Shown here: positions 2,495 to 32,000 of the stretch, piece by piece
Layout: each line of letters begins with the position of its first letter
How positions within the stretch are numbered: position 1 is the stretch's first letter
DNA from: an archaeon
Lineage (GTDB): Archaea > Iainarchaeota > Iainarchaeia > Iainarchaeales > 1-14-0-10-31-34
DNA: 32,000 bases
Assembly (NCBI GenBank): GCA_024277355.1
Contig: JAJRVL010000004.1
Coordinates: 90,001-122,000, forward strand
Reading direction: 5' to 3'
Made by a program: the position numbers and the translations under genes
Notes under the pieces: generated by a model
The model's input: the letters and a program-made list of their open reading frames with translations, nothing else
What the model was told of the DNA's origin: nothing
The model's database searches: none

Positions 2495-2538
2495 ATTCCT
2501 TCACTTAATAGTTAATTTTATTCTTAATAAACTTTATC

Positions 2539-3762
2539 TTAACTCAACTCCTGCTTATTTTTCAGTTCAGTCATCCTATTTTCAAGTTTATCTAATTCTC
2601 TGTTATAATTTTCATACTGCTCTAAATAAACATCTCTTGAAATAATTTGTTTATTGAAATAATCATCCTGTAATTTTTTCATTAAAATCAATAATTTTTT
2701 TCTTTCTCTTTTATAAAAAATTCTTCTTACAAAAGTTTTTCCTTCTTTAAATGAAACAAAAATAACATAAAAAATGAATATTACAGGAAAAATATATACA
2801 ATTGCATTTTGTGCAATAAAATAATATAAATGGCCTTTTGGCTCTAAACTTAAAGCTAAATTCCCTGAATTAAAATACTGGTCTTCAGCTAAAACATTAA
2901 CATAAAATATTTCTGCATTTAAATCTTCAGTTGAAATTACAATAAAATAATTGCCTGACTCATTTTTCTGCAAATTAAATTTTTCATTATTATATTCAAC
3001 CCAAACTTTTGCATCAGGTACCGAAACATTATCAGAATAAATCGGTTTAACTTCTAATATTAATGGACTGCCAAAATTAAATTCATTAATTAAAGGTTTA
3101 ATTAACTGGATTTTAATTGGAACAAGCCTTACATTAAAAGAAACAATATTGCTTCCTCCATTTTTTTCTTTAGTTCCTGAAAGAGCTGTAACCATTAAAC
3201 CTTTTTTTTCTATTGCAGCATCAACAGGAATATTTATGTTTTCATAATAATAAATTCCGTTTCCTTCAAAATACATTCTTATTTTATTTCCATTAAAGTC
3301 CCAAAAATAAACTGTTGCATTATTTACAGAAATTCCTGCATCAGTTACTTTAACTCTTACATCAAATGACTGAGTTCTAAAATAAGAAGAACTAGCAGGA
3401 CTAATAAAATCAACTCTAAGGTATTCGCATTTAACTGAACTGTTAACTCTAAACCTTAATTCTTTTTCTTCTTCCTGATCTTTAACTAAAACAACCCAGT
3501 CTCCTGAAGGATCATTGCATGAAATAAAATGCTTAAAAGAAAAAAAACCTTTTTCATCAGGTTCAATTACAGCATTTAATACTGTTTTGTTTCCAGGCAA
3601 AGCATAAACCAAAAAATTAATTTTTCCTGTAGAAGAACCATTTAAGTCCATAAATTCTCCTTTTTCATAGCTCCCTTTTGGAAGTTCAACTGATAAAGAA
3701 GAAACAAAAGAAACAAAGAAAAACAAAAAAAATACAAAAAGAATTTTATTTTTTAATCCCAT
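2539..3762 (-). CDS. Type I single-pass surface protein: signal peptide, Ig/MG-like beta-rich ectodomain, TM helix, 69-aa cytoplasmic tail with SHOCT-like coiled motif
   Basis: N-terminal hydrophobic signal KILFVFFLFFFVSFVSSLSV. C-proximal TM helix YYFIAQNAIVYIFPVIFIFYVIFVSF. Tail: KKLQDDYFNKQIISRDVYLEQYENYNRELDKLENRMTELK. Ectodomain pattern (V.V.D..G..V.NA.V......G.Y) and tail are paralogous to the next gene. SD-like GAAGGAAG lies upstream. Confidence 0.75.
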   Translation of the reverse strand: MGLKNKILFVFFLFFFVSFVSSLSVELPKGSYEKGEFMDLNGSSTGKINFLVYALPGNKTVLNAVIEPDEKGFFSFKHFISCNDPSGDWVVLVKDQEEEKELRFRVNSSVKCEYLRVDFISPASSSYFRTQSFDVRVKVTDAGISVNNATVYFWDFNGNKIRMYFEGNGIYYYENINIPVDAAIEKKGLMVTALSGTKEKNGGSNIVSFNVRLVPIKIQLIKPLINEFNFGSPLILEVKPIYSDNVSVPDAKVWVEYNNEKFNLQKNESGNYFIVISTEDLNAEIFYVNVLAEDQYFNSGNLALSLEPKGHLYYFIAQNAIVYIFPVIFIFYVIFVSFKEGKTFVRRIFYKRERKKLLILMKKLQDDYFNKQIISRDVYLEQYENYNRELDKLENRMTELKNKQELS

Positions 3763-3791
3763 AAATCATCAACTTCCTTCTTTTTTTTCTT

Positions 3792-5885
3792 TTAAACTGC
3801 TTTCTTTAAGTGTGTTTCATTTTCTTTTTTTTCTGGTTGTTCTTCTGATTTTTTTTCGGTTTCTTTTGCTTTTTTTGGCATTGAAAATAATCCAGGAATC
3901 TCTTCATCTCCCTGAACTTTAAAAGTATTTTGTTTTTTTCCGTCTTTTACTTTAAACATTGATTCTAATTCTTTATCATCAAATGAATCTTCTACTTTTT
4001 TTCTTTCACCAAAAACTTCTTCATCTTCAACATCTTTAATTCCTTCTGTTTCCTGAGTTTTCTTAAACGATTCAATTGCTGAATCAATATCTCTTAACTC
4101 AGAAGAATACTGAGACAATAAAGAATAATATTGTTCGTTTCCAACTGCGCCTAAATTAAAGTATTTTTCCTGTAAATCGCTTTTTAATTTTTCCAGATCC
4201 TTTTTTCTTTTTTTCAGTGAACTTAACCTGTCCATTCTTTTTCTTATAACTATAATAACTACAATAATAAAAACAAAAGCAAAAATAACTGAAAGAAACA
4301 ATAAAGGATTTTCTCTGAAATAATACTCTAAAGTTAATTCTCCAGTTACTTCAAATAATTTAGTAAAAGTAATTGAATTACCAAAAGCATCTGATGCTTT
4401 AACATTTAATAATAATTGTCTTGCTTCAGATAAATCTTCATTATTTACAACATAAGAAAAATAAAATACTCCTTGTTCTTTTTCTGCTGCAAAAATATTT
4501 TTATCATTTATTTTAATTGAAACTTTAGCTTTGTTTAATGGTTTTCCATTTTCATAAGAAAATTTTAATTTAAATTTTAATTCTTCACCTAAAGCAGCTG
4601 TTTCTTTTTTTGGTTCAAGCAAAACAGGAATAATTTTTGCATTATCCACTGTAATAGTTAATTCATTTGAACCCCCGTATTTAATTGAACCAATTGTTTT
4701 TCTTGCATTAATTAAAATTTTTTGTTCACCTAAAGGAAAATCAAACGGAATTAAATAAGACAAAGAATATTTTCCATTTGAAACCATTCTTAAATCAACT
4801 TCTTTTCCATCAGGAAACAAAGCAATTACATCTGCATCTTCAACTGGTTTTTCATCAAACAATATATCCACTAAAAGTTTTATTTCCTGTCCTCGTCCAT
4901 AAAGTTTTTCATAATCAGAAAAAGTTACATCCATAAAAATTGTTCCGGTTTCCCTGCTTACAATAATATTTTTTTCTTTTAAGCCTTCGTTGTCAAAAGA
5001 ATCTGCTCCTGAAACTCTTAAAATCCAGTTTCCTTCAGGATAAATTAAACTTGTTCTCTGCTCTAAAGAAAAAAATCCGTTTTCATCTGATTTAGTTTTA
5101 TTTTCAAGAATTTTTATGCCTTTATTTAAAGCAGAAACAGTAATTACAGTTGAAATTGGTTTGCCTCTTTTAAATAATCTTCCATTAAAATTAATTATTT
5201 CTCCTAAAACAAAATTATTTTTATCTATTTCAAAATTTAAATCAAGAGAAGGATTAACTTTAACAATAAAATTTTTTACTGCACTAACTCCTAATTTTTC
5301 TGCATAAATTTCTGAAGCATAATCTGCTTTAACTGTTAATTCTGAAACCAAAAAACTTACTCCATAAACTCCATCATGTTCTTTTCCATCTAAATGATTT
5401 CCATCATCATACATTGGAATATCTCCTGCAAAAGTTTTAACCCTAACATTTGCATTTCTTGCAGTTACGCCGTCAGCTTTAACTTTAGCTTTAAATGTAA
5501 TTTCATCTCCCCTCAAAAAAATATTTGAGTCAGCTGGTTCAAGTAATTCAATTGTAATTGTTGTTGGAGCACAATCAGAATCACAGTTAGCAAAATCTTC
5601 TCCTGATTCACAAATATTGTTTCCGCAGCAATAATATTTTATTTGAGCACGGCATAAACCAGTTAAACAACTGTATTCTTTACATACGTCTCCCTGTACA
5701 TCCCCTGAACAAGTTCCGCAGTCACCAGAACAAGTGCATTTATCTTCGCCTGAATCACAGGTTCCATTATTATTGCAAGTAGATAAATCCCATATTAAAG
5801 GAGTATAATTATTAAATAATTCAGCAAAACCTACTGGAAGCAGTAAAAGCAAAAAAATTAATCCAAAAACACTAATTTTATTCAT
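3792..5885 (-). CDS. Type I single-pass surface protein: signal peptide, Cys-rich module, 4-5 Ig/MG-like repeats, TM helix, 150-aa cytoplasmic tail (SHOCT-like motif plus acidic/lysine-rich end)
   Basis: The track starts at a TTG (5909). The ATG at 5885 gives a much better signal peptide (MNKISVFGLIFLLLLLPVGFA) and has a GGTGA SD 9 nt upstream. There are 14 Cys in residues ~45-113. Repeats follow the pattern G(D/E).h.h...G.P...A.V.......G.Y. TM helix: LLFLSVIFAFVFIIVVIIVI. Tail: LKSDLQEKYFNLGAVGNEQYYSLLSQYSSELRDIDSAIESFK. Confidence 0.8.
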   Translation of the reverse strand: MNKISVFGLIFLLLLLPVGFAELFNNYTPLIWDLSTCNNNGTCDSGEDKCTCSGDCGTCSGDVQGDVCKEYSCLTGLCRAQIKYYCCGNNICESGEDFANCDSDCAPTTITIELLEPADSNIFLRGDEITFKAKVKADGVTARNANVRVKTFAGDIPMYDDGNHLDGKEHDGVYGVSFLVSELTVKADYASEIYAEKLGVSAVKNFIVKVNPSLDLNFEIDKNNFVLGEIINFNGRLFKRGKPISTVITVSALNKGIKILENKTKSDENGFFSLEQRTSLIYPEGNWILRVSGADSFDNEGLKEKNIIVSRETGTIFMDVTFSDYEKLYGRGQEIKLLVDILFDEKPVEDADVIALFPDGKEVDLRMVSNGKYSLSYLIPFDFPLGEQKILINARKTIGSIKYGGSNELTITVDNAKIIPVLLEPKKETAALGEELKFKLKFSYENGKPLNKAKVSIKINDKNIFAAEKEQGVFYFSYVVNNEDLSEARQLLLNVKASDAFGNSITFTKLFEVTGELTLEYYFRENPLLFLSVIFAFVFIIVVIIVIRKRMDRLSSLKKRKKDLEKLKSDLQEKYFNLGAVGNEQYYSLLSQYSSELRDIDSAIESFKKTQETEGIKDVEDEEVFGERKKVEDSFDDKELESMFKVKDGKKQNTFKVQGDEEIPGLFSMPKKAKETEKKSEEQPEKKENETHLKKAV

Positions 5886-5944
5886 TAAACATTTCACCGC
5901 AAACTTCAATTAAATTTATTTCAAAAAATTCATTCATTAATTTT

Positions 5945-6796
5945 TCACCACAAAATTTCATCTGTTTTCTTTTTTTCTTTTACTTTTTCAAAAGTTACGC
6001 CTTTATCAGTTAAAGAATAAGGAAGCAAAGTTTTTGAGTGATTAGTACAACGCATTTTCAGTATTTCCACTGCTCTTCTTCTTGAATTACCTGTTTTAAC
6101 ATTATATAATACTATTACGCCGTCAGCTAAAAATTCTTCTATTCCTGTTCTTGAATAAATTCCTGGGTCTTGTTCAGTTTCAGAAATAATAAAATTAACT
6201 GAATCATACTGGTTTAATGAATCAAACATATGCTTAATGTAATACCTGTAATTTTCAGAGTTCCCCATGAATGCAACACTTAAAGCAGACAAAGAATCAA
6301 CTACAATTTTATCAGGAACAAAAGGCAATTCAAGCTGTTCAACCTGAACCAATAAAGCTCTTCTTTGTTTTAATAAAGAAGCTTCAACACTTCTTGCAAT
6401 TTTAAATGGATTAATTTTTAATACAGCAAATTTTCCTTTTTCTTCAAATTTAGCTAAATCCCAGCCATAATTGTTTCTCATATGTCTTTTGAGTTTTTCT
6501 GCTGTTTCTTCAAATAAAATATAAACTGCTTTTTCTCCTTTTAATAAACTGTGATACAAAGACTGCATACAAAAAGTGCTTTTTCCTGTTCCGCATCCGC
6601 CTGAAATCAAAATAGTTGAACCTCTTTCAATGCCTCCTGCATCTAAATGAGAATCAAATTCAGCAACTCTTACAGGCAAAAACTCAATTTTTTCTTTTCT
6701 TTTCTGCCTTCTTTCCTTCATATCCTCTAATTCTTCTTCTTCAATACTTCCAGGTTCAATTTCTTCTTTTCCTGCAAACTTAATTCCAAAAGGCAT
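5945..6796 (-). CDS. KaiC/RecA-superfamily ATPase (single-domain, COG0467-like)
   Basis: Walker A ISGGCGTGKSTF. Walker B-like KIVVDSLSAL. KaiC-family C-terminal signature ILKMRCTNHSKTLLPYSLTDKGVTF (compare KMRG..H......F.It..Gi). No signal peptide or TM helix. Charged N-terminal extension EEEELEDMKERRQKRKEK. Confidence 0.85.
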   Translation of the reverse strand: MPFGIKFAGKEEIEPGSIEEEELEDMKERRQKRKEKIEFLPVRVAEFDSHLDAGGIERGSTILISGGCGTGKSTFCMQSLYHSLLKGEKAVYILFEETAEKLKRHMRNNYGWDLAKFEEKGKFAVLKINPFKIARSVEASLLKQRRALLVQVEQLELPFVPDKIVVDSLSALSVAFMGNSENYRYYIKHMFDSLNQYDSVNFIISETEQDPGIYSRTGIEEFLADGVIVLYNVKTGNSRRRAVEILKMRCTNHSKTLLPYSLTDKGVTFEKVKEKKKTDEILW

Positions 6797-15076: not shown

Positions 15077-17158
15077 ATGGCTTTTACAACAGATGAATTA
15101 ATTCAGATTGGATTAATTGTAGGAATAATAATTGTTTTTGGTTACACTATATTCAATTACTTAAAGAACAAAGGATTATTAGAAAAATTAACCCAAAAAA
15201 CAGAAAAAAGAACTGAAAGACCTGCAGCTAAATCATTATCTTTTGCAAAAAACAGAAAAATGAGAGGATTAGAAAAATTAATTCCAGACAAAAAATTAAG
15301 TAAAAAACCAATTTTAACTGAATTAAGAATTGAAAGCACTGAAGGATTGTGGGAACCAGAAAAAGAACCTTTAATAGAAAACAAATCTGAACAAAAAACA
15401 GAAATAAAACAAAAAGAAATTCCCTTTAAACCTGAAATAAAATCAAAAGAAGAAATTAAATTATCTGAATTAAAGCCTGAATCAAAATCTTCAGCAAAAG
15501 GAATATTATCTGACATTATATTAAAAATTAAAACAGAAAAACAGGAAATTTTAAAACCAAAAATTGAGCCAGCAAAACCAAAAGAAGAAACAAAAAAGTT
15601 TGAATTCAAAAAAGAAAAACCAAAAGATAAACTTGAAATTAAAAAACCAGAAATAAAACCAATTGAAAAAAAATTAAAAACGGAAACAAAAGAAAAAGGA
15701 TTTTTTGAAAAATTAGGGTTTAATTTAAAACTTAAAGCTAAACAAAAAACAATAGAAAAGAAAAAAGAAAACAAATTTGAAGAAAAATTAAAACAGTCAA
15801 TTCAGAAAAAACCTGAAATAAAAGAAAAATCAAAAACAGAAGGAAAAAAAACAGAATTAAAAGAAACAGAAAAAAAAGATTCAGTTAAGTCTTTAATTAA
15901 ACCTGCAGACGCTTTTGCTTTACCTGAAGAAAAAAATAAAACTAATGAATTAACTGTAGCAAGAAAATTAGAAGAAAAAATAAAAGGATATCAAGAAAAA
16001 GCCAGAAAAAGCCAGAAAAAACCAAAAACAAATGTTTTATTTGACAATCAAGAAGAAAAAGAAAAACATGAACAAAAATTCGTTCAAAAAATCCTTGAAT
16101 CAGAAGAAGAAGAGGAATTAGAAAAAATAAGCAAGGCAATAGACCCAAAAACAGACAAAAACTGGCAGAAAGAAAAAGAAGAAACAATTAAAGCGCTAAA
16201 AAAAGAATTCACTGATTTAGATAAAACAGAAAAAAAAGATTTATGGAAAAAACCTGAAGAAAAACAGGAAATTCATAAAAAAGAAGAAGAACAAAAAAAT
16301 AAATTAATTCCTAAAGCATTTCCTGAAAAACCAAAAACAATAATTCCTGAGATAAAAAAAGAAATTAAAACAATTAAACCAAAAAAAAGCTTTTTTGATT
16401 TTTTTAAAAGGAAAAAAACAGCAGGAAAAAAACATGAAATAAAACAAAAAGAAATTACAATTAAAAAATCTGAACCAGAAATAAAAAAAGAAATAATTAC
16501 TAAACCAACTGAAACAAAAAAAGAAAAAACAGAAATAAAAAACAAAAAACCAGTTGAATTAAATAAAAAAATTAAACCAGAAAAAAAAGAAAAAGAATTA
16601 ATTAAACCTGTTAAAGAAATTAAACCTGAAATAAAAAAAACAAGCACTTCAACAGAAGAATTAAATGCAGAAATGAGAAAACTAATTGAAGAACAACAAA
16701 AAGCCAAAGGAATAAAACCAAGAAAATTTAAATCAAGAAAAGAAACTGAAATTAAAGCTAAAGATATTGAAATCAAAAAAGAAGTTCCAATAAAAATTAA
16801 ACCAAAACAAGAAGAACATTCATTGAAACCTGAAATAAACGAAAAAATAAAACCACATTTCGAGAAAAAACAAGTTATCAAAACAGAAATAAAAAAACCT
16901 GAATTTAAACCTGAAATAAAAACAGAAAAAAAAGAAGAAACTAAACCAAAACAAAAAAAGAAAGGTTTGTTTGAAAGATTTGGATTAAAAAAAGAAAAAA
17001 TTAATTTAACTAAAGCAGAAGAAGATCAACTGCAAAAAATAATGATAGTTTTAAAAGGAAAAACGTCTGAATATTCAAGGGACGACATGAGAGATGCAAT
17101 GAAAAACTTAGGTTACACTGAAAAAATAATTGAAGAAGCAATAAAAAGGTTGTATTAA
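15077..17158 (+). CDS. N-terminally membrane-anchored protein with ~580-aa K/E/P-rich low-complexity spacer and a small globular C-terminal domain
   Basis: TM helix LIQIGLIVGIIIVFGYTIFNY. Recurrent KPEIK-type motif. Three amphipathic motifs: GFFEKLGF, SFFDFFKR, GLFERFGL. The C-terminal 50 aa (LTKAEEDQLQKIMIVLKG...MKNLGYTEKIIEEAIKRLY) are shared with the next gene. The stop overlaps the next gene's ATG. Confidence 0.65.
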   Translation: MAFTTDELIQIGLIVGIIIVFGYTIFNYLKNKGLLEKLTQKTEKRTERPAAKSLSFAKNRKMRGLEKLIPDKKLSKKPILTELRIESTEGLWEPEKEPLIENKSEQKTEIKQKEIPFKPEIKSKEEIKLSELKPESKSSAKGILSDIILKIKTEKQEILKPKIEPAKPKEETKKFEFKKEKPKDKLEIKKPEIKPIEKKLKTETKEKGFFEKLGFNLKLKAKQKTIEKKKENKFEEKLKQSIQKKPEIKEKSKTEGKKTELKETEKKDSVKSLIKPADAFALPEEKNKTNELTVARKLEEKIKGYQEKARKSQKKPKTNVLFDNQEEKEKHEQKFVQKILESEEEEELEKISKAIDPKTDKNWQKEKEETIKALKKEFTDLDKTEKKDLWKKPEEKQEIHKKEEEQKNKLIPKAFPEKPKTIIPEIKKEIKTIKPKKSFFDFFKRKKTAGKKHEIKQKEITIKKSEPEIKKEIITKPTETKKEKTEIKNKKPVELNKKIKPEKKEKELIKPVKEIKPEIKKTSTSTEELNAEMRKLIEEQQKAKGIKPRKFKSRKETEIKAKDIEIKKEVPIKIKPKQEEHSLKPEINEKIKPHFEKKQVIKTEIKKPEFKPEIKTEKKEETKPKQKKKGLFERFGLKKEKINLTKAEEDQLQKIMIVLKGKTSEYSRDDMRDAMKNLGYTEKIIEEAIKRLY
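15250..17000 (+). repeat. Coding low-complexity region (degenerate KPEIK / KKE repeats)
   Basis: Motif instances read directly: FKPEIKSKEE, KKPEIKPIEKK, KKPEIKEKSK, IIPEIKKEIK, SEPEIKKEII, IKPEIKKTST, LKPEINEKIK, KKPEFKPEIKTEKK. The DNA is A-rich on the sense strand, which generates long spurious antisense ORFs. Confidence 0.7.
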
Positions 17159-18384: not shown

Positions 18385-18434
18385 AAAAATAAAAATATAA
18401 AAAGAATTAGTTGCCGGACTTTTTACAAGCCGGC
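18385..18434 (-). terminator. Putative metK terminator: GC hairpin overlapping the stop codon, followed by T-runs
   Basis: Minus-strand reading GCCGG-cttgtaaaaagt-CCGGC (plus-strand 18413-18434), followed by AACTAATTCTTTTTATATTTTTATTTTT. The GC-only stem is conspicuous in this AT-rich sequence. Confidence 0.4.
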
Positions 18435-19589
18435 TTCTTTTTTCAATAAATCTGTTTTATCAGTTTTTTCCCAGGTAAAATCAGGGTCATTTCTTCCAAA
18501 ATGGCCGTAAGCAGCAGTCTTTTTGTAAATAGGTCTTTTCAAATTTAACTGCTTTAAGATATCAGCTGGCTTTAAAGGAAAATGCTTTCTGACTAATTCA
18601 GCAATTTTGTCTTTAGAAATCTTTTCTGTTCCAAAACAATCCACATTAACTGAGACAGGTTCAGGAAAACCAATTGCATAAGCTAACTGAACTTCACATT
18701 TTGAAGCTAAACCTGCTGCAACAATATTTTTTGCAATATATCTTGCAGCATAAGCAGCACTTCTGTCAACCTTTGAAGGGTCTTTTCCTGAAAAAGCGCC
18801 TCCACCGTGTCTTCCAATGCCTCCATAAGTATCAACAATAATTTTTCTTCCAGTTAAACCTGCATCAGCATAAGGGCCGCCTCGAACAAAAGCACCAGTA
18901 GGATTAACATAAAACTTAGTATTTTCATCAATCCAATCCTTACAAACAGGCTTAATGATTTTTTCAATTACTTCAGATTTAATTGTATCATATTCAATTC
19001 CACCATTATGCTGAGTTGAAATCAAAATTGCATCAGCTCTTAAAGGTTTACCATTTTCATCATATTCAATAGTTACCTGGCTTTTGCCGTCAGGTCTTAA
19101 AAAATCAATTCCATTGCTTCTTCTTATTTCAGCTAATTTTTCGCATAATTTATGAGCCAAAACAATAGTTAAAGGCATTAATTCAGGTGTTTCATTACAG
19201 GCAAAACCATACATCATTCCCTGATCTCCCGCACCTTGTTCTTTAAATAATCCTTTTCCTTCAGTTACTCCTTGAGAAATATCAGGACTTTGTTCTGTAA
19301 TTTGAGTCCAAACTGAACAAGTTTCAAATTCAATACCATATTCAGCATCAGTGTAACCAATTTCTTTAATTGTATCTCTTACAACAGAAGGAATATCAAC
19401 ATAAGCTTTAGTGGTAATTTCACCAAAAACATTTACTCCTCCATTTTTTGTTGCTGTCTCGCAAGCAACTCTTGCTTCAGTATCTTGTGCAAAAATTGCA
19501 TCAAGAATTGCATCTGAAATTTTGTCACACATTTTATCAGGATGACCTTCAGTGACTGACTCTGAACTTAATAAAATTTTTTCTGCCAT
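18423..19589 (-). CDS. metK: S-adenosylmethionine synthetase (methionine adenosyltransferase), bacterial/eukaryotic type
   Basis: [34 protein letters not shown] and [23 protein letters not shown] are canonical MetK motifs. The real start is the ATG at 19589 ([10 protein letters not shown]...), preceded by a GAGGTG SD. The track's 19-codon upstream extension (MCCFLFIYF...) is spurious. Confidence 0.95.
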
Positions 19590-19655
19590 AAAAATACACA
19601 CCTCATTAATAAAAAATCTAAAATAGATAAATAAAAAACAACACATAACTTTAAA

Positions 19656-20977: not shown

Positions 20978-21080
20978 AAAAACTATTTAAGCTATTTTTC
21001 GCAGCACAGTTATATTTAAATATTTGTTTTAACTCTATAGTAATAACAAATATACATAAGTTTGTGTGTTTTGTGGTTTA

Positions 21081-21866
21081 ATGAAATTAAAATATTTAAT
21101 TCTTCCTTTGCTTTTGGTTTTTGCATTAAATGCAAATGCTTTTACTTCTGATTTACCTAATTTTATTAATTTTTATGAAGAACCTGAAACAATAAGTTTT
21201 TTTGTTGAAAATGATTCAGGAAGCATTCAGCCATTAAATATCAGTGTTTTTTCTCCTTTAGCTTATGAAATACAGGGAAAAAAGAATTTTATTGAATCAG
21301 GAGAAAAAATTCAGATTGACTTAGTTTTTTTTCCTAAAGAAGAATTAATTAATTCAGTTTATGAGTCAAGTGTTTTAATTGAATTAGGAAATGAAAAAAC
21401 AAAAAATAATTTTTCAATGTATTTTTTGAAAAGAAATTTTTGTCCAATGGAATTTAATGCAGAACAAAAAGGAAATTTAATTGAAGTTAAAGTAAAAAAT
21501 AATTCTTTTTATGAAACTAAACTGGAAGTTTTAGGATTAAAAAATAAAGAAAACTGGAGTATAGAAAAAAAAGTTTTTTCTTTTGATTCAGATGAAGAAA
21601 AAATCATTTCGTTAAGTGTTTCAGGTTTTGGTTCAGAAGAAAATAATTCAGTTTTAATTAAATGCAATGAATTAGAAGAAGAATTTAATGTAAAATTAGA
21701 AAGCAGGAATTCAAATGTTATTTCAGCAACAGGCAATGTTCTTGTCACTGAATTTGGAGAATTAACTGAACCAATTAATGTTGTTTTAATTGTAATTGCT
21801 TCAGTTTTATTGATTTTATTTATTTCAAGATTAGTTAAAAGATTAAACAAGGAGGAAATTAAATGA
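21081..21866 (+). CDS. Type I surface protein: signal peptide, two NEW3/CARDB-like beta-sandwich modules, C-terminal TM anchor
   Basis: The ATG at 21081 gives MKLKYLILPLLLVFALNANA (the track's GTG at 21066 adds 5 codons). Modules: ISFFVENDSGS...ESGEKIQIDLVFFP and IEVKVKNNSFY...DEEKIISLSVS. TM helix VVLIVIASVLLILFI with a short basic tail. ATGA overlap with the next gene. Confidence 0.7.
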   Translation: MKLKYLILPLLLVFALNANAFTSDLPNFINFYEEPETISFFVENDSGSIQPLNISVFSPLAYEIQGKKNFIESGEKIQIDLVFFPKEELINSVYESSVLIELGNEKTKNNFSMYFLKRNFCPMEFNAEQKGNLIEVKVKNNSFYETKLEVLGLKNKENWSIEKKVFSFDSDEEKIISLSVSGFGSEENNSVLIKCNELEEEFNVKLESRNSNVISATGNVLVTEFGELTEPINVVLIVIASVLLILFISRLVKRLNKEEIK

Positions 21867-23635
21867 AAAAATTAATGTTGTTTTTGATTTTGATTGCATT
21901 GCTTTCAAATGTTAATGCTTTAATTGAACCTGAAAAAAATATTGTTTCAGTGGCTTATGATGAAAGTTTTTCTGTTGCAGTTAAAGTGAAAAATGATTCA
22001 AATGAAAAAGCATTAATTCATTTAAGTTCTTTTAGTTCAATTAAAACAGATTTTTCGGTTAATGATTTTTATTTAAATGCAGGAGAAGAAACAGTTATTG
22101 CATTGAATATTCTTTCATATTATTATAACAGCAATACTAATATTGAATTAAGAGCAGAATACAATGGAATTACTGAATATGCTGATTTAACTGTTATTAC
22201 AGGAAACAGTTCAGGAAAAGTCAACTTAAAATATTACAAGCAGAATATATGCAGGAATGGATTAGATAAATTAAGTTTATGGATTAAAAATGATTCTTTA
22301 ATTACCCAAAAAATTAAGTTAAGTGCTGACTCAGAAGTTTTTTTGCCTTCAATTTACCCTGAATTAATTGAATTAAATGCAGGACAAGAAAGATTTGTTG
22401 AATTAGAATTATATTCAAATAATTCTTTTCCATTAAAAGATTATTCAGTTAATGTTGTACTTGAATCAGAAAATGAAATTACTTCAAGAGAAATATTTTT
22501 TGAGTTAACTGAATGCATTGAAATAGAAAAAGGATTTAGATTAATTATTCCTGATTCTTTTTTGAGTATTGAAAAAGGAGAAACCAAAAAAATTTATTTT
22601 AGTGCAAGAAATTTAAGTGATAAAGATAATGAAATTTCTTTTGCAGTTAAATCAGATTTAATTACTGAATTACAGCAGACTAAAACTGTGTTGGCTGAAG
22701 GAGAAACAAGAAGATACTGGATTGAAGTAAAAGCATTAAAAACTGATGAAGCAGGAAAACATAAACTTGAATTATATGCATTTAATCCTTTTATTGAAAT
22801 AAAAAAAATAATTAATGTTAATGTAAAAAAAATGCATGAAGTTAATGCAGAATTATTAACTGATAACCTTGAAATTGAAAGAGGCCATTCAGGTGTTTTT
22901 TCTTTGTTAATTGAAAACAAAGGCGATTATAAAGAAAAAATTGAAATAAATTATTTTTCTGAAGAAGAAATTAATGTTTTGTTTTCAGAAAACGATTTTT
23001 ATTTAAATGAAAAAACTGATAAAAAAATTTATTTTTCTATTAACCCTTTAGTTAATGCAGAATTAGGAGAAAAAGAAATTGAAGTTAAAGTTAATGAAAA
23101 AACAATTTTAGTTAATTTTAGTGTAATAGAAGAAGAAAAACCATTAATTACTTCAGGAGTAATTGAATTGCTTTCAGTTCCTGAAAAAATCACTTTAACT
23201 GAAGAAACAGAAATAAAGGTTCTAATTAAAAACATTTCAGGAGAAAAAATTGAAAATACATTCTTTTGGATTGAAGGCCTTCCTAAAGGAACTGCCTTTG
23301 AATCAGTTTCAATTAAAGAAATAAACAACGAAAAAACAAAAGAGTTTACTGGAAAAATTCTTTTAGATGAAAAAGCAGTAAAAGGAAGTTATAGTATTAC
23401 ATTAGTTTTTGAAAACAGTAAATTCAGACAAAAAAAAGAAATACAATTAATTATTCTGGAACAAGAAAAACAAGAAGAAAAAGAAATACATGAAAATGAT
23501 TTTCTTGCAGGCTTGATTTCTTTTGGTTCAATGGAAGGAATTGGATTAATTGTAATTGCATTAATTATTTTAATTTTGTTATTAAATCCAGGAAAACAAA
23601 AAGAAAAATGGAATATAAGGGGGAATAAAAAGTGA
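21863..23635 (+). CDS. Type I surface protein: signal peptide, ~5 NEW3/CARDB-like modules, C-terminal TM anchor
   Basis: Signal MKKLMLFLILIALLSNVNA. AAGGAGG SD upstream. Repeated h.h.h.N.(S/G)....h.h...........(F/L).L..GE...h.h.h pattern (for example VKVKNDSNE...LNAGEETVIALNI; WIKNDSLIT...LNAGQERFVELELYS; LLIENKGDY...). TM helix GIGLIVIALIILILLL. GTGA overlap with the next gene. Confidence 0.75.
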   Translation: MKKLMLFLILIALLSNVNALIEPEKNIVSVAYDESFSVAVKVKNDSNEKALIHLSSFSSIKTDFSVNDFYLNAGEETVIALNILSYYYNSNTNIELRAEYNGITEYADLTVITGNSSGKVNLKYYKQNICRNGLDKLSLWIKNDSLITQKIKLSADSEVFLPSIYPELIELNAGQERFVELELYSNNSFPLKDYSVNVVLESENEITSREIFFELTECIEIEKGFRLIIPDSFLSIEKGETKKIYFSARNLSDKDNEISFAVKSDLITELQQTKTVLAEGETRRYWIEVKALKTDEAGKHKLELYAFNPFIEIKKIINVNVKKMHEVNAELLTDNLEIERGHSGVFSLLIENKGDYKEKIEINYFSEEEINVLFSENDFYLNEKTDKKIYFSINPLVNAELGEKEIEVKVNEKTILVNFSVIEEEKPLITSGVIELLSVPEKITLTEETEIKVLIKNISGEKIENTFFWIEGLPKGTAFESVSIKEINNEKTKEFTGKILLDEKAVKGSYSITLVFENSKFRQKKEIQLIILEQEKQEEKEIHENDFLAGLISFGSMEGIGLIVIALIILILLLNPGKQKEKWNIRGNKK

Positions 23636-26121
23636 ATAAAAAGAATTTTTTATGGATTGGAATAGGAGTAATATTAATTTTAATGAGTTTTATAGTTAAT
23701 GCTCATACTTTAAACGGAGACTTCAGCGGAATAGCTTTTCAGGGAGAAACAATTGAAAGTGCTTTTGTTTTATGCAACACAAGTGATTCAAGTGAAAACT
23801 TCAGAATAAATTCAGATAATTCATGGATGACTTTAAGGCCTTTAAGTGTTTACTTAAATGCAAATTCATGCGGAGAATTTTTTGCTTTTACTACCCCGGA
23901 TCCATATGCCCAATCAGGAAATTATGAAATAACAATTACTGCTCAAGGAAACCAAAGTATTTCAGGAATATTTGATTTAACTGTAGCAGAAGGACACAAA
24001 ATAAACATTCAGTCAAATCAAAGTTTAATTAATTCAACTCAATGCAAAGAAGAATTATTTAAATTTGAATTAACTAACACAGGAATATTTGATGAAAAAA
24101 TACTTCTTTCAGTTGAAGGATTAAATCAAAACTGGATTGAATTAAGTTCAGAAGAAATTCTTTTACCAAAAAATTCAATGCAGGAACTTGAATTAAAAGT
24201 TTTAATTCCTTGTAATCAGGAAACAAAAAACTATGACTTAAAATTAAAAGCAGAACTAAAAAACACAGGAATAACTAAAACAAAAAATATTTCATTAAAC
24301 ATTGAAAACGCACAAGAAATTTTAATTCAGAATAAATCTTTCAGTTCATGCAATGACTTAAAAACAAAAGATTCAATTTCATTAACAAATACTGGTTTAT
24401 TAACTGATGAATTAACTTTAGAAATTCAGGGAAATAACTGGATTTCATTAAACCAGACAAAAATTTCATTAAATTCAAATGAAACAAAAGAAATTGAATT
24501 AAATTTTAATGGAATAGAAACTGAAGCAAAAAATTATTCTTTTACTTTAAAAGTTTACTCAGAAAAATTCAATCAATTATATGAAAAAGAATTTAATGTT
24601 TTAATTGAAGACTGCTTTGATTTAAGCATTGAATCCCAATCAAAAGAAACAGCTTGCATTGAATCAAATCCAGAAGCAGTTTATATTCTGAAAAACAATG
24701 GAACAAAAAAAATGGTTTTTCAGTTAAACCTTGAAGGCATTAAAGCAGAATTAGAAAAAAATTCTGTTTCATTAAATTCAAATGAAAGCATTGAAGTAAA
24801 AGCAAAACTTGATTTCAGTGAAAGCAAAACAGGAGAAACAAACTTTGTTTTTATTGCTGACTCAGAAAACTATTCAAAAAGCATTGAAAACACAATATTA
24901 ATACAGGACTGTTATAATACTGAAACAATTGTTCCTGAATTAAATTTATGCAAAGAAATTCCATCAACAAACAATATTACAATAAAAAATACCGGAACAG
25001 AAAAACAAGTTTTTTCAGTTTCCTCAACAGTTGAATGGATTAACTTAAAAGAAACAGACTTTGAATTAAATTCAAATGAAGAAAGAATAATTGAATTAAA
25101 TGCTTTACCAAAAAAAGATTCAACTGAAAACAGGTATTCAATTAAAACAAAAACAGAAAACAACCAGTTTATAATGAACGGAAAAATCAATTATTTAAAT
25201 GAAACTGAATGTTTTGGAATAGAAATGACTAACTTAAAAAATACCATTGATGTTAATGCAGGAGAAGGTGCAGTAACAACCATTAAAGTTTCAAACAAAG
25301 GAAAAACCATTCAGACAGTAAGTTTTGATTTAAAAGAATTATGGGTTTATTTTAATCCAAAAGAATTTTCTTTAAATAAAGGAGAAACAAAAGAAATTTA
25401 CGTTTATTTTAATCCTCCTTTTGACTTTAAAGAAGAACAAGCAGTAGTAATAGTTAAAGCAAAAACAAACTTTGGTTTTGAAACACAAAAACAAGTTGAA
25501 GTAAATGTTTTTGGAGGAAGTATTGTATTAACTATTAATCCTGAAGACATTAAAGTTAATTCAAAAGAAGTGGAATTAAAAGATACAAACGAAAATACAA
25601 TTGAAATTAAAATTGAAATAGAAAACAATACAGAAACAAGCATGAAAATACTTGACGTAAAAACAAATTTTGATTCAAGTTATTTTATTGAAGAACCAGT
25701 AATAAAAAAAGATTCAACAAGAGAAATATTACTGAAATTTACTGCAAGTGAAGAACTTGAATTAAATGGATTAGAGATTCCGGTTGAAATAATTTCAGAT
25801 AAAGGAACTTATTATAAAATTGTAAAACTTCCTGAAAAAGAAACAAAAGAAGACCAAGAAAAAACAGGAGAAACAGGGTTTGTTTTATTCGGAGAAAATG
25901 ATTATGTTTTAGTTATTCTTGTTGTAATTGTAGTTATTTTAATTATTATGGCTGCATTAAGAACAGATGAAAAATCAAACAAAGAAGAAAAAGGCACAGT
26001 AGTTGATTATTCTCCTGAACAGGACTTCCAGAAAGAACTCAAAGAAATAATTACAAAAAAACCTCAGACAAGGAAAAAAACAAGCAGTAAAACAAAGAAA
26101 AAACCAACAAGAAAAAGATAA
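23632..26121 (+). CDS. Type I surface protein: signal peptide, ~8 NEW3/CARDB-like (COG1470-style) modules, TM anchor, basic cytoplasmic tail
   Basis: GTG start with an AGGGGG SD. Signal FLWIGIGVILILMSFIVNA. Modules such as FKFELTNTGIFDEKILLSVEGLNQNWIELSSEEILLPKNSMQELELKVLIP fit the NEW3 pattern (v.N.G....v.l....p.gW.v......l.pg.s..v...v). TM helix YVLVILVVIVVILIIMAAL. Tail KKPQTRKKTSSKTKKKPTRKR. Confidence 0.8.
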   Translation: MNKKNFLWIGIGVILILMSFIVNAHTLNGDFSGIAFQGETIESAFVLCNTSDSSENFRINSDNSWMTLRPLSVYLNANSCGEFFAFTTPDPYAQSGNYEITITAQGNQSISGIFDLTVAEGHKINIQSNQSLINSTQCKEELFKFELTNTGIFDEKILLSVEGLNQNWIELSSEEILLPKNSMQELELKVLIPCNQETKNYDLKLKAELKNTGITKTKNISLNIENAQEILIQNKSFSSCNDLKTKDSISLTNTGLLTDELTLEIQGNNWISLNQTKISLNSNETKEIELNFNGIETEAKNYSFTLKVYSEKFNQLYEKEFNVLIEDCFDLSIESQSKETACIESNPEAVYILKNNGTKKMVFQLNLEGIKAELEKNSVSLNSNESIEVKAKLDFSESKTGETNFVFIADSENYSKSIENTILIQDCYNTETIVPELNLCKEIPSTNNITIKNTGTEKQVFSVSSTVEWINLKETDFELNSNEERIIELNALPKKDSTENRYSIKTKTENNQFIMNGKINYLNETECFGIEMTNLKNTIDVNAGEGAVTTIKVSNKGKTIQTVSFDLKELWVYFNPKEFSLNKGETKEIYVYFNPPFDFKEEQAVVIVKAKTNFGFETQKQVEVNVFGGSIVLTINPEDIKVNSKEVELKDTNENTIEIKIEIENNTETSMKILDVKTNFDSSYFIEEPVIKKDSTREILLKFTASEELELNGLEIPVEIISDKGTYYKIVKLPEKETKEDQEKTGETGFVLFGENDYVLVILVVIVVILIIMAALRTDEKSNKEEKGTVVDYSPEQDFQKELKEIITKKPQTRKKTSSKTKKKPTRKR

Positions 26122-27919: not shown

Positions 27920-28747
27920 TTATTTTAAATTCTTTTCGTTTTGCTTTTTCCACAAAACAACAACAATAACTAAATAAACAAGATAAGATAACACTTCAAT
28001 TAATGATGGATTTCCATTATATCCAAATAATCCTTTTGCAATACTTCCAATTAATCCTTTTTCATGAAGCAAAGGAAAACTTCCATCAGCATTTAATGCA
28101 GGATTAATATTCCAGACTTCATTAATTATTACCGGAACAACTCCTGCTTCCTGTAATTCATGTATTCCATGAGAAGTTAAACCTGCAGCAAACAAAATTA
28201 ATAAAATACCTGTAATTCCAAAAAACTTTTTTATATTAATTTTTTTTGAACTGACAAACAATAAATAACCTAAAAATACTGCCCCAATAATTCCTGCAAA
28301 AGCACCAATTAAATTTGATGAACCTGAAGCAAAAAAAGATGCATTTAAGAAAATAACTGTTTCAATTCCTTCTCTTAAAACCAAAACAAAAACTAAAAAG
28401 AATAAACCAAATTTTTTTGCTTCACTTATTTCAACTGAAACTTTTTCTTTTATTTCGCCTGCAATATTTTTTTGTTTTATCATCCATAAAATCATTGAAG
28501 TTAATAAAACAGAACCAATTAACATTGTTATTCCTTCAAATAAAGCTTCATTTTCAGCAAAGCCTCCTGCAATAAAACTAAACAGCACTGCTCCAATTAA
28601 ACTGAAAATTATTCCTGCAGCTAAACCAACAAAAACTATATTATTGTATTTTTCTTGTTTTGTTTTAGTTAAATAACCTAAAATTATTCCAATAATTAAA
28701 GCTAATTCTAATGCTTCCCGAAAAGTAATAATAAAATCAGCTATCAT
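27920..28747 (-). CDS. FTR1/EfeU-family high-affinity iron permease
   Basis: Two REXXE motifs in TM helices (TFREALELALIIG and VLREGIETVIFL). About 7 hydrophobic helices. Length 275 aa. Confidence 0.85.
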   Translation of the reverse strand: MIADFIITFREALELALIIGIILGYLTKTKQEKYNNIVFVGLAAGIIFSLIGAVLFSFIAGGFAENEALFEGITMLIGSVLLTSMILWMIKQKNIAGEIKEKVSVEISEAKKFGLFFLVFVLVLREGIETVIFLNASFFASGSSNLIGAFAGIIGAVFLGYLLFVSSKKINIKKFFGITGILLILFAAGLTSHGIHELQEAGVVPVIINEVWNINPALNADGSFPLLHEKGLIGSIAKGLFGYNGNPSLIEVLSYLVYLVIVVVLWKKQNEKNLK

Positions 28748-28793: not shown

Positions 28794-31700
28794 TTAATTT
28801 TCAACTTCAAATACTCCTGTAACAAACTTATAGTCAATACATGAAAGACATTGAATTACATTTGAACAGGTTTTGCATGCTTCAGGTGTTTCAATCAGAG
28901 GTTTAGATTCAATTACTGTTGTATCTGAAACTTTTGTCGGCTTGCAGTAATCATTACCTAATTCTATTTCTTTCCCATAATTTTCTTTGAATATTCTGTA
29001 CCACGCAATAACACTTGGAACATATGTTTCTCTTGTGCTTGTTGCTTTAATTTCAGTACAAGAAACATTTTTTGGACCTGAATTATATCCTGCAATCTTT
29101 AATGCAGTTTTCCAGGTTGCTTTTGCAATTCCTGAATTAACTAACACTTTATTTAATTCTTCTTCATTACAGTTTAATCCATTAATCTCTTTTTCTAATG
29201 AATTATCTCCTGCTTCAGTTGAATTAAAATATCTTGTTCCTGCCCAAATACTATTTTCTGAGTCAGCCCAGCTTTCAGTTGTCTTCCAGTCTAAACCAAA
29301 AATATCCATCCAAGAATCTAAATTTGTTTTATGAATCTGCATTAAACCATAAGAACTTTCATTTCCGCTTTCATCAGGACCAATTGCATCAGGAACAAAA
29401 GAACTTTCCTGCTGAATTATTGCTCTGATTAAATCTGCGTCCATTGAATAATGATTTTCATTTCCATATCTTTCAATTAAAGAATCATATTTCTCTGCAT
29501 TCTTCATTGCGATAACACAATCTGCACTTTGTTTACCTAATCTTACTGTTTCTTTTTTTGTTACTTCTGCTTTAAAAGTAATTTTTTTATCTTCTCCTGG
29601 AGTTAAAACAATTGTAGTGTCTTCTGGAGTTAATTTAACGGTATAATCAGTTGAATCAGTTGGACTGCATAAATCATTAGGATATGGCGGTTGGTCACAA
29701 ACATAATCTAAACCATCTATTAAACTGCATGAATCTGGTGCAGGCGGCTGATCACAAATGTACAGTTCTCCAATTGTTGCAGGCACTTCAACTGGCTTTA
29801 ATGGAACTTCTTGTTCTTCATAAATTTCAATTACAACTCTTGTTGCATCAGGATAATTTGGAATTGGATCTAATCTTAAATCTTTAATCTCTCCTGGAAT
29901 CTGTTTTAGGATTTCATCTATTGCATCTTTAATTACATCTTCAGAACATTCAACTTCCAAGTCACATTCAATTGTTATTCCAATTTCAGTTGTATCTTTT
30001 GGAGTTGAGTCTGTTTTCATTTGAACTTCAATTGAAGCAGCTTCATAATTTGGTTCAACAAAAGTTCCTCCAAAAATTTCTTTTCCATCCGCATAACCTT
30101 TTAAATCACATTTTCCGTCTCCGGTTTTATCCTGACAAACAAAAAACTGGAAAGTAGAATTATCCCAATTTTTTAAAATTATTCTTGGCTGAGCTGAAGA
30201 AGAAAAAGATTCATAAGAAAAAGTCAATCCATTTTCTTTTGCATCAAGGAAATCAACTAAAACTGAAGTTCTAGGATAATAATTTAATGTTTTTATAGTG
30301 CTTGGAATTTCACCGTGTTTTGTTCCATTTTCATCAAATACAATAATTGAAAAAAACCCTTTTTTACTTTTATCATATTCCTGTAACATAACTGAAAATT
30401 GTTTGTCTGCTTTTGTTTCTGCTTTATCTAAATAAACTATATGTTCAGGAACTTTAGAACCTGGATTTCTTATTATTTTTTTTCCATCAACAGAAGCAAT
30501 CTGCAAGTTTTTTTGTTTTCCGTCAGAAGTTTTTGGAGTTTCTGAAGAAATTACCGGAGAATCAAATAACAATGAATCACTTTTTCCAAAAAACTTGTTT
30601 ATTCCGTTTTCACTAAAATCAATTATCCCAGTGTTTTCAGTTATTGGCTGAGGAAAAACTGCTCCAAACACACCATATATTATGTCTTTTAAATAATCAT
30701 AATAATTAGTTGAATTTGAATCCTTAATAATTAAATTATATTTTTTTCCTTTAATTAATTCAACAGTAAAACGATCTTTTTTTGCTATATCAGGATTAAT
30801 TACAATAATATCATTGTCTTCTTTTAATGCCTTAAAATCAATTATGTTTTCAAAGTTTTCTTTTGCAAAAACCTTGTAATTATCTTCTCCTAAAATTACA
30901 GTTAAAGTAAATTTATTATCTGGTTTTGAAACAATTGTTTTAGCAGTATCTTTTGGAACAGTAATTTGAGTGTTTTCTGCAGAATTACTCCAAACCCATG
31001 CTTTAGTTGCAGTTGAATCAGGAATTTTAATTGTTATTTCTTCTCCTTGAGAAAATAAAACAGGCCAAGTATTTATTCCTTCAGAATCCACTCTTAAAGT
31101 AGTAAATGGAACAAAAACTTCTTTTCCAGTTGAATCTTCTACAATTGGAGTAACTGAAACTGAATCCATTGCATTAATTACTTCTTCTGGAATTAAAACA
31201 TCAATTTTTGCTGTCTGTTTTTTTATGTTAATTTTATTTCTTAAATCAATTACAGTATCAGAAGAAACAATAATTTTATCTGAAACCCAATCCTGCAATT
31301 CAGAGGAATTTGAAATTAATTTTAATTTATAAGAATTTTTTGGAACTTTACCTGAAAGCAAAGCAAAAGAATTCTGTGAAAGATAAATTGATTTTGCATT
31401 AATTGTATCATAAAAATCAAAAGTTAATTTTCCTTCATTTAAATAATCCATTACTTCTAAACCTAAATTTATTTTTAAATTAAATTCTTTTTCTTCATAA
31501 AGTTGTTTTGTTTTAACTTGTTTTAATAAATCATAACCATCTAAAATAGAAAATTCAATTGTGTTTGCCTGGCTTGCAATAACAGATTTCAGTATTTGTC
31601 TGTTGCTGATTATTAATTCAATCGAAGTTCTTTCAGGTACAAAAGAAAATTCTAATACAGGAGTAGTTTTATCAAAAGAATCTAAACCAAAAAAATAAAC

Positions 31701-32000
31701 AAATAAGGGAAGTCCTTCTAATTTATATAAAACAGGAGTTTTTGGATCCAAATTTTCTGTTTCAAAAGAATATTTTCCGTTTCCTAAACTTTTAGCTAAA
31801 GGAATTTCTTTCAGTGTATCTGTTTCATTATAAGTTATTGCTAAAGAAACAGTGTTATCTGAATTAACTGAAACTAATTCGACATCAACAATTGAACAAG
31901 AAGCAGTTCTATTTGATGCAGTTAATTCAATTGATGCATTTGAAAATAATCCTGTACCACAATCATATTCTATAAAAGGAAATTCTTTACTTTCCATAAA
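28794..32000 (-). CDS. Giant (>=1067 aa) beta-rich protein with C-terminal SLT-type lytic transglycosylase domain; probably 5'-partial
   Basis: The frame stays open to the window edge (the codon upstream of the ATG at 31997 is TTT). The visible N-terminus MESKEFPFIEYD has no signal peptide, so the true start is probably upstream of the window. ~750 aa of beta-strand-rich sequence, a tandem CDQPP motif, one Ig-like module, an SLT domain and a Cys-rich end. Confidence 0.85.
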   Translation of the reverse strand, partial: FMESKEFPFIEYDCGTGLFSNASIELTASNRTASCSIVDVELVSVNSDNTVSLAITYNETDTLKEIPLAKSLGNGKYSFETENLDPKTPVLYKLEGLPLFVYFFGLDSFDKTTPVLEFSFVPERTSIELIISNRQILKSVIASQANTIEFSILDGYDLLKQVKTKQLYEEKEFNLKINLGLEVMDYLNEGKLTFDFYDTINAKSIYLSQNSFALLSGKVPKNSYKLKLISNSSELQDWVSDKIIVSSDTVIDLRNKINIKKQTAKIDVLIPEEVINAMDSVSVTPIVEDSTGKEVFVPFTTLRVDSEGINTWPVLFSQGEEITIKIPDSTATKAWVWSNSAENTQITVPKDTAKTIVSKPDNKFTLTVILGEDNYKVFAKENFENIIDFKALKEDNDIIVINPDIAKKDRFTVELIKGKKYNLIIKDSNSTNYYDYLKDIIYGVFGAVFPQPITENTGIIDFSENGINKFFGKSDSLLFDSPVISSETPKTSDGKQKNLQIASVDGKKIIRNPGSKVPEHIVYLDKAETKADKQFSVMLQEYDKSKKGFFSIIVFDENGTKHGEIPSTIKTLNYYPRTSVLVDFLDAKENGLTFSYESFSSSAQPRIILKNWDNSTFQFFVCQDKTGDGKCDLKGYADGKEIFGGTFVEPNYEAASIEVQMKTDSTPKDTTEIGITIECDLEVECSEDVIKDAIDEILKQIPGEIKDLRLDPIPNYPDATRVVIEIYEEQEVPLKPVEVPATIGELYICDQPPAPDSCSLIDGLDYVCDQPPYPNDLCSPTDSTDYTVKLTPEDTTIVLTPGEDKKITFKAEVTKKETVRLGKQSADCVIAMKNAEKYDSLIERYGNENHYSMDADLIRAIIQQESSFVPDAIGPDESGNESSYGLMQIHKTNLDSWMDIFGLDWKTTESWADSENSIWAGTRYFNSTEAGDNSLEKEINGLNCNEEELNKVLVNSGIAKATWKTALKIAGYNSGPKNVSCTEIKATSTRETYVPSVIAWYRIFKENYGKEIELGNDYCKPTKVSDTTVIESKPLIETPEACKTCSNVIQCLSCIDYKFVTGVFEVEN
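28990..29480 (-). other. SLT (family-1 lytic murein transglycosylase / goose-lysozyme-like) catalytic domain
   Basis: Three canonical motifs in order. AIIQQESSF (catalytic Glu codon at 29406-29408). SYGLMQIH (29334-29348). IAGYNSGPKNV (about 29064-29090). WAGTRYF lies in between. Confidence 0.8.

Follow-up and report, generated by a model that had tools for sequence, protein, structure and literature searches.

The stretch examined here, 32,000 nucleotides of contig JAJRVL010000004.1 and termed the window throughout, carries at its right-hand end most of a gene for a long secreted protein with a GH23-type SLT domain near its C-terminus. The open reading frame (ORF) lies on the minus strand (28794..31997; 1067 amino acids plus stop) and continues past the edge of the window. 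The remainder came from a search of 5.8 billion proteins: with 100% identity, the ORF matches the last 1067 residues of P0001, a protein of 1197 amino acids and 18 Cys residues that is encoded on a 526,574-bp NCBI contig among housekeeping genes. The original prediction, made from the letters of the window, had cautioned that the N-terminus lay beyond the edge, and this was so, with the first 130 residues of P0001, including the signal peptide and the first conserved N-terminal domain, encoded beyond position 32000. Related proteins and their loci are given below as P and L numbers. The features of the gene, in the order in which the protein is read, are as follows:

28794..32000, minus strand: 3' 3.2 kb of the gene for the 1197-amino-acid secreted protein, residues 131-1197 and stop, from the identity to P0001
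30510..31997, minus strand: fast-evolving beta-rich region without a recognisable domain (P0001 131-626), with 20-45% column identity and low-confidence strands
29988..30509, minus strand: conserved Cys-bridged beta module (P0001 627-800), from family conservation
29643..29780, minus strand: variable Cys/Pro-rich linker with short repeats CDQPPxPxxC...DY, read from the sequence, with the lowest conservation in the family
28935..29528, minus strand: SLT/GH23 lytic-transglycosylase domain (ORF residues 824-1021), from the family alignment, Pfam, a PDB profile search, AlphaFold 2 (AF2) and Foldseek
29397-29414, minus strand: QQESSF motif, from the sequence
29406-29408, minus strand: codon of the predicted catalytic Glu (P0001 E994, in the E-S motif), from invariance and the alignment with MltC
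29334-29348, minus strand: GLMQI motif, from the sequence
29073-29093, minus strand: AGYNSGP motif, from the sequence
28797..28877, minus strand: C-terminal 4-Cys tail CKTCSNVIQCLSCIDYKFVTGVFEVEN, a separable module, from alignments

The SLT domain and its origin

The domain is recognised by several independent comparisons. Pfam SLT (PF01464) matches ORF residues 847-979 (nucleotides 29061-29459) with 46 bits and E = 4.7e-12, against a curated cut-off of 21.3, and is the only Pfam family above its cut-off in the ORF, the same scan giving a weak, sub-threshold similarity to Phage_lysozyme2; relatives score from 42 to 112 bits with SLT. This comparison had been suggested as a check when the domain was first proposed, and it bears the proposal out. 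The three family-1 motifs that had been picked out at that time, QQESSF, GLMQI and AGYNSGP, are present in that order, but they stand 92-206 residues from the C-terminus and not within the last ~170 residues, as had been thought. The region of the catalytic Glu aligns in profiles as well: a profile of the family run against the PDB retrieved MltC (E = 7e-10), EmtA/MltE and goose-type lysozymes, with ESSF placed on the ESSF of MltC and the Glu conserved, in addition to a weak, sub-threshold similarity to EtgA. In the family alignment, E-S, G-L-M-Q and Y-N are invariant in nine of nine SLT domains, and they stay invariant once 52 bacterial SLT proteins are added, in an alignment of 53 sequences. 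An AF2 model of the last 248 residues has a predicted local distance difference test (pLDDT) score of 73, rising above 85 through most of the SLT core, and its top Foldseek matches are all GH23 (goose lysozyme 1gbs, MltE and Slt70; probability 1.00, template modelling (TM) scores 0.41-0.59), a moderate fold similarity with 17-22% identity to the solved structures over the alignments. The SLT/GH23 identity of the domain and the conservation of its active-site motifs are thereby established.

Relative to the bacterial family-1 enzymes, the domain has an additional insertion, with Cys, between motifs II and III. Together with the extreme C-terminus, it is the best-conserved part of an otherwise fast-evolving protein, and in P0002 (L004 10001-14071) there are two such domains, the second being N-terminal and directly following the signal peptide. 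Several relatives have a degenerate motif III (ARYNTKA, ARYNSSS, ARYNCSQ), some of them without its Gly, and P0010 lacks the catalytic Glu while keeping the rest of the domain. Such cases would fit a domain that serves mainly as a lectin-like, glycan-binding anchor to bacterial walls, with catalysis irrelevant, and attachment was among the roles proposed by Castelle et al. (PMC8204110). Yet none of the nine full family domains departs from Glu-Ser and GLMQ, which is unexpected for a pure binding module, and this explanation is regarded as highly unlikely.

The search for a donor of the domain was less fruitful. The nearest sequences outside the family, found with a profile of nine sequences, are small SLT proteins (~186 amino acids), several of them from Clostridia, at 25-30% identity and E values between 1e-10 and 1e-12; when compared locally, members of the family scored 76-540 bits and the best outsider 39. 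A phage origin was considered and rejected, since tblastn found no match among 50,697 phage records. With no close bacterial or phage donor found by the profile search, the local comparison or the phage records, the domain was either acquired long ago or evolves fast. A second SLT giant, the 1903-amino-acid protein of locus L011, scores only 18 bits with the family profile, so that the domain described here is at least a distinct SLT subfamily with respect to it.

Export, host and the parts of the protein

The absence of a secretion signal upstream would have spoken against the original prediction, and a signal was found. P0001 begins MKKIILFLVLIFLFSFVSA|EEN, that is, with two lysines, a 14-residue hydrophobic core and V-S-A, followed by acidic residues, and by inspection this is a typical Sec signal peptide; it is kept in the homologues. 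It is also the sole stretch of P0001 with a 19-residue hydropathy above 1.6. The signal contains neither a lipobox Cys nor a class-III (pilin-type) cleavage motif, and the hydropathy scan revealed no second hydrophobic or membrane segment in P0001. Because of the Sec signal and the lack of any other membrane segment, the protein is predicted to be exported and either soluble or peripherally held.

For a protein that would act on bacterial walls, it matters whether the producer is an archaeon or a bacterium. Three species-representative genomes, the only ones of that rank with a relative, were deposited as "Candidatus Micrarchaeota archaeon", "uncultured archaeon" and "archaeon", and the gene order is common to the window and these three genomes over at least 15 kb. 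The syntenic loci encode a TrmB regulator with the archaeal TrmB C-terminal domain and, in L004, an archaeal SSB/RPA-like protein, while the window itself holds an Ogg equivalog (an Ogg2-type glycosylase) above its cut-off and a KaiC/ArlH-like ATPase. A contig that is chimeric, or bacterial and from the candidate phyla radiation (CPR; Patescibacteria), in which the SLT protein would be wall housekeeping, might be suspected from the low guanine-plus-cytosine (GC) content (about 26%) and the small genome, which fit CPR as well as DPANN, from the bacterial-type MetK of the window, and from the lack of any rRNA or tRNA in its 32 kb that could settle the domain of life. Against this stand the archaeal deposition of the three syntenic genomes, the TrmB, SSB/RPA-like and Ogg2-type proteins, the position of the gene on a 526-kb contig in conserved synteny, which makes a binning artefact untenable, and the absence of murein synthesis genes from the window and the related loci; hybrid gene sets with bacterial-type genes are, besides, documented in DPANN (PMC8204110). 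A CPR or chimeric source is therefore extremely improbable, and the archaeal (DPANN) origin assumed from the start is very probable, given the related loci in metagenome-assembled genomes deposited as archaea and the archaeal-like gene content.

The part of the protein that precedes the SLT domain is longer than the ~750 residues first estimated, with 823 residues in the window and 953 in the full protein. Its description as beta-rich holds to the extent that a full-length AlphaFold model, built on a four-sequence alignment, is rich in strands at a low-confidence mean pLDDT of 41, whereas the label adhesin-like does not, as Pfam gave no adhesin-domain match above cut-off in the ORF and only sub-threshold matches to beta-sandwich families. 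For the ~800 residues that precede the SLT domain, 1.84 billion representative proteins contained only 12 relatives, and nearly all full-length relatives end in SLT. Column identity in the body is 20-45% within the family, except in the N-terminal domain outside the window and in the Cys-bridged module. This module opens with NLQI..VNGK and closes with WDG..F.F.VCQDKTGDGKCDL...EPNYEAASI. No other stretch outside the SLT domain is conserved as well, and P0008, a relative without SLT, has it in duplicate. No NCBIfam match was found for the CQDK module. The linker between module and SLT domain contains two CDQPPxPxxC...DY units here and three in P0003. Between genomes, the tail/SLT protein is 34-41% identical, as against 55-80% for the neighbouring genes, and in its sequence features it is a putative surface protein that evolves fast behind a conserved head.

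A conserved stretch of 46 residues follows the SLT domain and ends in the 4-Cys tail. The pattern of the tail is C-x2-C-x5-C-x2-C followed by D-[YW]-x-F-x-x-G, with the consensus C-x2-C-[SN]-[ST]-[IV]-x-[EQT]-C-L-A-C-x-D..., and the last 27 residues are conserved in all relatives, including P0008 and P0012, which lack an SLT domain, and P0010, whose degenerate SLT domain lacks the Glu. A metagenome scan with the tail alignment yielded further family members and also unrelated secreted proteins with the same C-terminal motif (L008, L009, L011, L014 and L015, on contigs of 39-50% GC). Judged from these alignments, the tail is a module in its own right and also forms the end of predicted secreted proteins without an SLT domain. 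In L012 and L013, the 4-Cys module is internal, between SLT and a weak SGNH/GDSL-like domain; in the 955-amino-acid secreted protein of L012 (3913-6777), the scores are 25 bits for SLT and 21 bits for GDSL/SGNH, the latter below its cut-off. The SGNH/GDSL fold is that of the O-acetyl-peptidoglycan esterases, and the L012 protein may thus combine a transglycosylase with an O-acetyl-esterase.

Known sorting signals (PGF-CTERM, PEP-CTERM and similar) were considered for the tail and rejected. The hydropathy scan detected no hydrophobic segment or transmembrane helix at the C-terminus of P0001, for which reason the tail is not a sortase-type signal, and it has no match in NCBIfam even at E = 10.

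The gene neighbourhood and the proposed function

The tail proteins are found in characteristic company, and the neighbouring genes in the window and upstream of the relatives are these:

27920..28747, minus strand: FTR1-family iron permease gene, 46 nucleotides downstream of the SLT gene and present at this place only in this genome
27159..27878, minus strand: TrmB-family transcription regulator, after a 41-nucleotide gap from FTR1
21066..26121, plus strand: convergent three-gene operon (proteins of 266, 590 and 829 amino acids), conserved beside Cys-tail proteins even in distant contigs
L001 2-508, L002 7753-10001, L004 7674-10023 and L006 314-2536: upstream anchor region

The order MAT, CBS-HTH, 266/590/829, TrmB and SLT protein is common to the window, where FTR1 is added, and to L001-L005, where it is not. 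In every locus that extends past the 3' end of the tail-protein gene (L001-L008 and L010), TrmB lies directly downstream of it, with or without an SLT domain. FTR1 was therefore rejected as a conserved partner: TrmB is the conserved downstream gene and FTR1 an insertion specific to this genome. The 266-, 590- and 829-amino-acid proteins each have a signal peptide, a beta-rich or Ig-like body, a C-terminal membrane anchor and a basic, Lys-rich tail, and no significant PDB relatives of the two larger ones were found. On the other side, upstream of the SLT gene in L002, L004 and L006, there are three overlapping genes, which encode an N-anchored helical protein of ~200 amino acids, a secreted protein of ~350 amino acids and a paralogous anchor; the L001 contig ends upstream of the SLT gene, leaving only the second anchor visible. 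The anchors consist of an N-terminal membrane helix and a helical ectodomain with two conserved Cys, one of them at the very C-terminus. In the genome of the window, these genes would fall just past position 32000.

Tail proteins and anchored surface proteins occur together on divergent contigs as well. In L014, a tail protein stands beside homologues of the 590- and 829-amino-acid proteins (133 and 157 bits), in L009 one converges on an 829 homologue, in L015 an anchor-like protein comes after the tail protein, and in L008 and L010 the tail-protein gene is followed by TrmB. The series in L011 (1288-11830, 50% GC) comprises an anchor, a 722-amino-acid secreted protein, another anchor, a 497-amino-acid Cys-tail protein and, as a separate protein, the 1903-amino-acid SLT giant. 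The giant has its SLT domain in the centre, then a membrane segment and a large C-terminal region, and a thioredoxin-reductase-like gene adjoins this series, as one does in L014. Since the association of tail and anchored surface proteins recurs across such divergent contigs, it suggests that the tail docks to these proteins.

The remaining genes of the window may be described briefly. A small retropepsin-like aspartyl protease (PF13975/PF13650; 20555-20977, plus strand) lies between the CBS-HTH gene and the surface-protein operon and is conserved in L001. The bacterial-type MetK (TIGR01034, 568 bits; 18423-19646, minus strand) occupies the same place in L001-L004 with 54-81% identity by tblastn. 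A Lys/Glu-rich, low-complexity protein of 693 amino acids with an N-terminal membrane segment is encoded at 15077-17158 on the plus strand, where the AT skew is about 0.5, and only its last ~60 residues are conserved in L002. Surface proteins take up much of the window: within positions 1-6796 (minus strand), the KaiC/ArlH-like ATPase (5945-6796) has as neighbours two anchored surface proteins rich in Cys or in beta structure (3792-5909 and 2539-3762) and a protein with CARDB repeats that extends past the start of the window. In L002, a tRNA-Ile (anticodon TAT, 3646-3722) adjoins an isoleucyl-tRNA synthetase gene.

The reading that is favoured, with moderate confidence, is that of an exported GH23 enzyme that cuts bacterial peptidoglycan and is probably mounted on the cell surface through its Cys tail and the adjacent anchored proteins. 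The long, fast-evolving, beta-rich protein would be exported by the Sec route with a GH23 domain near the C-terminus that is predicted to be catalytically competent. Outside the archaeal cell, this domain would cleave the N-acetylmuramic acid (MurNAc)-beta-1,4-N-acetylglucosamine (GlcNAc) bond of bacterial peptidoglycan, and the archaeon could thereby reach or hold on to bacterial cells or the debris of their walls. As the protein has no predicted membrane anchor of its own, it would be retained by the 4-Cys module and the products of the conserved neighbours, that is, the two N-anchored helical proteins of ~200 amino acids and the secreted protein upstream, and the three C-anchored Ig-like proteins on the other side, the cluster also containing a conserved TrmB-type regulator. 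The pairing of SLT with a weak SGNH/GDSL-like domain in the distant tail-module protein of L012 is counted as a further link to peptidoglycan. The substrate, the tethering by the tail and the role, be it attack, attachment or feeding, are what we infer.

A number of observations weigh against this reading. GH23 also includes chitinases, of which that of Ralstonia (A-471) is found lower among the Foldseek matches, and in the family profile search of the PDB the goose-type lysozymes score about as well as EmtA. Because of these two results, the sequence fixes neither chemistry nor substrate, and a lytic transglycosylase and a goose-lysozyme-like muramidase are equally possible. The signal peptide was called by inspection and a hydropathy scan, and the window offers, as noted above, no rRNA or tRNA. 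For the mounting of the protein, the tail has a pLDDT below 50 in the AF2 model, its docking is read from gene neighbourhood only, and the remote versions of the anchors in L011 and L015 have weak similarities of 22-28 bits. Lastly, P0008, P0010 and P0012 lack the SLT domain or its Glu, and the core function of the protein family would therefore be independent of SLT.

The chitinase match also leads to the possibility that the substrate is not murein at all, the GH23 domain having been repurposed for chitin-like or GlcNAc glycans, for the coat of an archaeal host, or for polymers of the producer's own surface while the neighbouring surface proteins are being assembled. Cultivated DPANN archaea have archaeal hosts, the gene is embedded in the archaeon's own surface-protein cluster, and the distance of 25-30% identity to the nearest bacterial SLT proteins leaves room for a change in specificity. 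However, motifs I-III are strictly conserved and of the family-1 murein transglycosylase type, the best profile matches are MltC and EmtA, and the remote L012 protein couples SLT to an SGNH-like domain, a combination typical of O-acetyl-peptidoglycan processing, so that a substrate other than murein seems quite improbable.

The neighbourhood itself bears on a further explanation, namely that the enzyme breaks down the free peptidoglycan debris of dead bacteria for the import of amino sugars and peptides, with no partner and no breaching of walls. The TrmB regulator in the same transcription unit is of a sugar-sensing type and would fit a substrate-responsive catabolic module, Pfam recognised no adhesin or host-recognition domain, and dead-cell peptidoglycan has been proposed as a nutrient of Pacearchaeota (PMC11537232). 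On the other hand, no genes for a muropeptide transporter, an amidase or NagZ-like or MurQ-like enzymes were found in the window or the syntenic loci, the ~950-residue body, with its divergence well beyond that of the neighbouring genes, looks more like engagement with a changing partner surface, and the fixed association with anchored surface proteins speaks against free release. Feeding of this kind is considered unlikely.

Returning to an enzyme held at the surface, a more specific scheme can be put forward, tentatively and with a low probability attached to it. The 4-Cys module would be the docking piece of a modular DPANN surface display in which variable secreted cargo, in the present case with a head that cuts peptidoglycan, is held on adjacent anchored partners, and the SLT giant would be the business end of an apparatus for contact between archaeon and bacterium. 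The display partners may be the N-anchored helical proteins of ~200 amino acids with their two conserved Cys, the Ig-like proteins of 590 and 829 amino acids, or both. A disulfide bridge between molecules, from the C-terminal Cys of the anchor to the tail, was set aside, as the second, internal conserved Cys of the anchor makes an internal disulfide the simpler assumption.

Comparison with known systems

The bacterial enzymes MltC, EmtA/MltE and Slt70 have the same Glu-Ser, GLMQ and AYNxG motifs and the same alpha-helical, goose-lysozyme-like fold. The domain described here differs from them in its low identity to the solved structures (17-22%), in the Cys-containing insertion between motifs II and III and in its fusion to an archaeal-specific body of ~950 residues. 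In addition, the producer here is presumably without murein, and the target would be foreign. VirB1, EtgA and the tape-measure or tail lysozymes of phages likewise have an SLT domain, which is used there to open peptidoglycan locally, but they cut the wall of the producer or of the infected cell within a known machine. The original prediction had considered a part in a conduit-forming apparatus, as in secretion and pilus systems; this found no backing, as neither the window nor the five syntenic loci contain genes of a secretion system, a pilus or a phage.

Another group consists of the bactericidal hydrolases of archaea, which are also secreted and directed against a polymer that the producer lacks (PMC12352652; the GH25 muramidase of Aciduliprofundum boonei, Metcalf 2014). 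Strock et al. 2025 (PMC12352652) reported that about 5% of archaeal genomes, notably those of Nanoarchaeota, encode peptidoglycan hydrolases and that such enzymes kill bacteria. The only tested enzyme named in the passages drawn on here is a GH25 muramidase with a likely bacterial donor traced, in contrast to the domain here, for which no donor is identifiable, and the terms "SLT", "GH23" and "PF01464" are absent from the main text of that paper.

The closest parallels are the SLT giants of other DPANN archaea. An SLT domain was noted earlier in three DPANN genomes, according to Castelle et al. (PMC8204110), and the large extracellular SLT proteins of Pacearchaeota and Woesearchaeota were read as binding or degrading bacterial walls (Castelle 2021, PMC8204110). 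A "large lytic murein transglycosylase" (GH23) in several Woesearchaeota was put forward as an argument for predation (Vigneron et al. 2022, PMC9723730), and the wall-targeting reading of archaeal SLT proteins is repeated in later surveys (PMC11537232). In the literature searched, there is as yet no demonstration of a DPANN archaeon that lives on a bacterium, and the case from genomes that some do so is made mainly by the SLT giants. The present gene is of value as a clean, full-length example in which the active site is intact, the export signal clear and the set of conserved partner genes defined, and on which the idea can be tested directly; if confirmed, the gene cluster and the separable Cys tail would indicate by what means archaea carry such enzymes on their surface.

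As far as they are described, these giants (fam00969 of Castelle 2021, the AR20 protein of Castelle 2015 and the GH23 proteins of Vigneron 2022) resemble P0001 in being longer than 1000 amino acids, predicted to be extracellular and, very probably in the case of P0001, encoded by DPANN archaea with small genomes, in having SLT/GH23 as their only recognisable domain, and in the wall-directed role proposed for them. What sets P0001 apart is its non-SLT part, with no more than the 12 relatives mentioned above, fam00969 having been compared by its description only. The idea of an attack on bacterial walls is thus already published, and this gene is a new, rather isolated example of such proteins. 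The 4-Cys module and the conserved gene cluster are not described in the passages of PMC8204110, PMC9723730 and PMC12352652 that were drawn on here, and this end-piece and its cluster seem to be an addition to the prior work.

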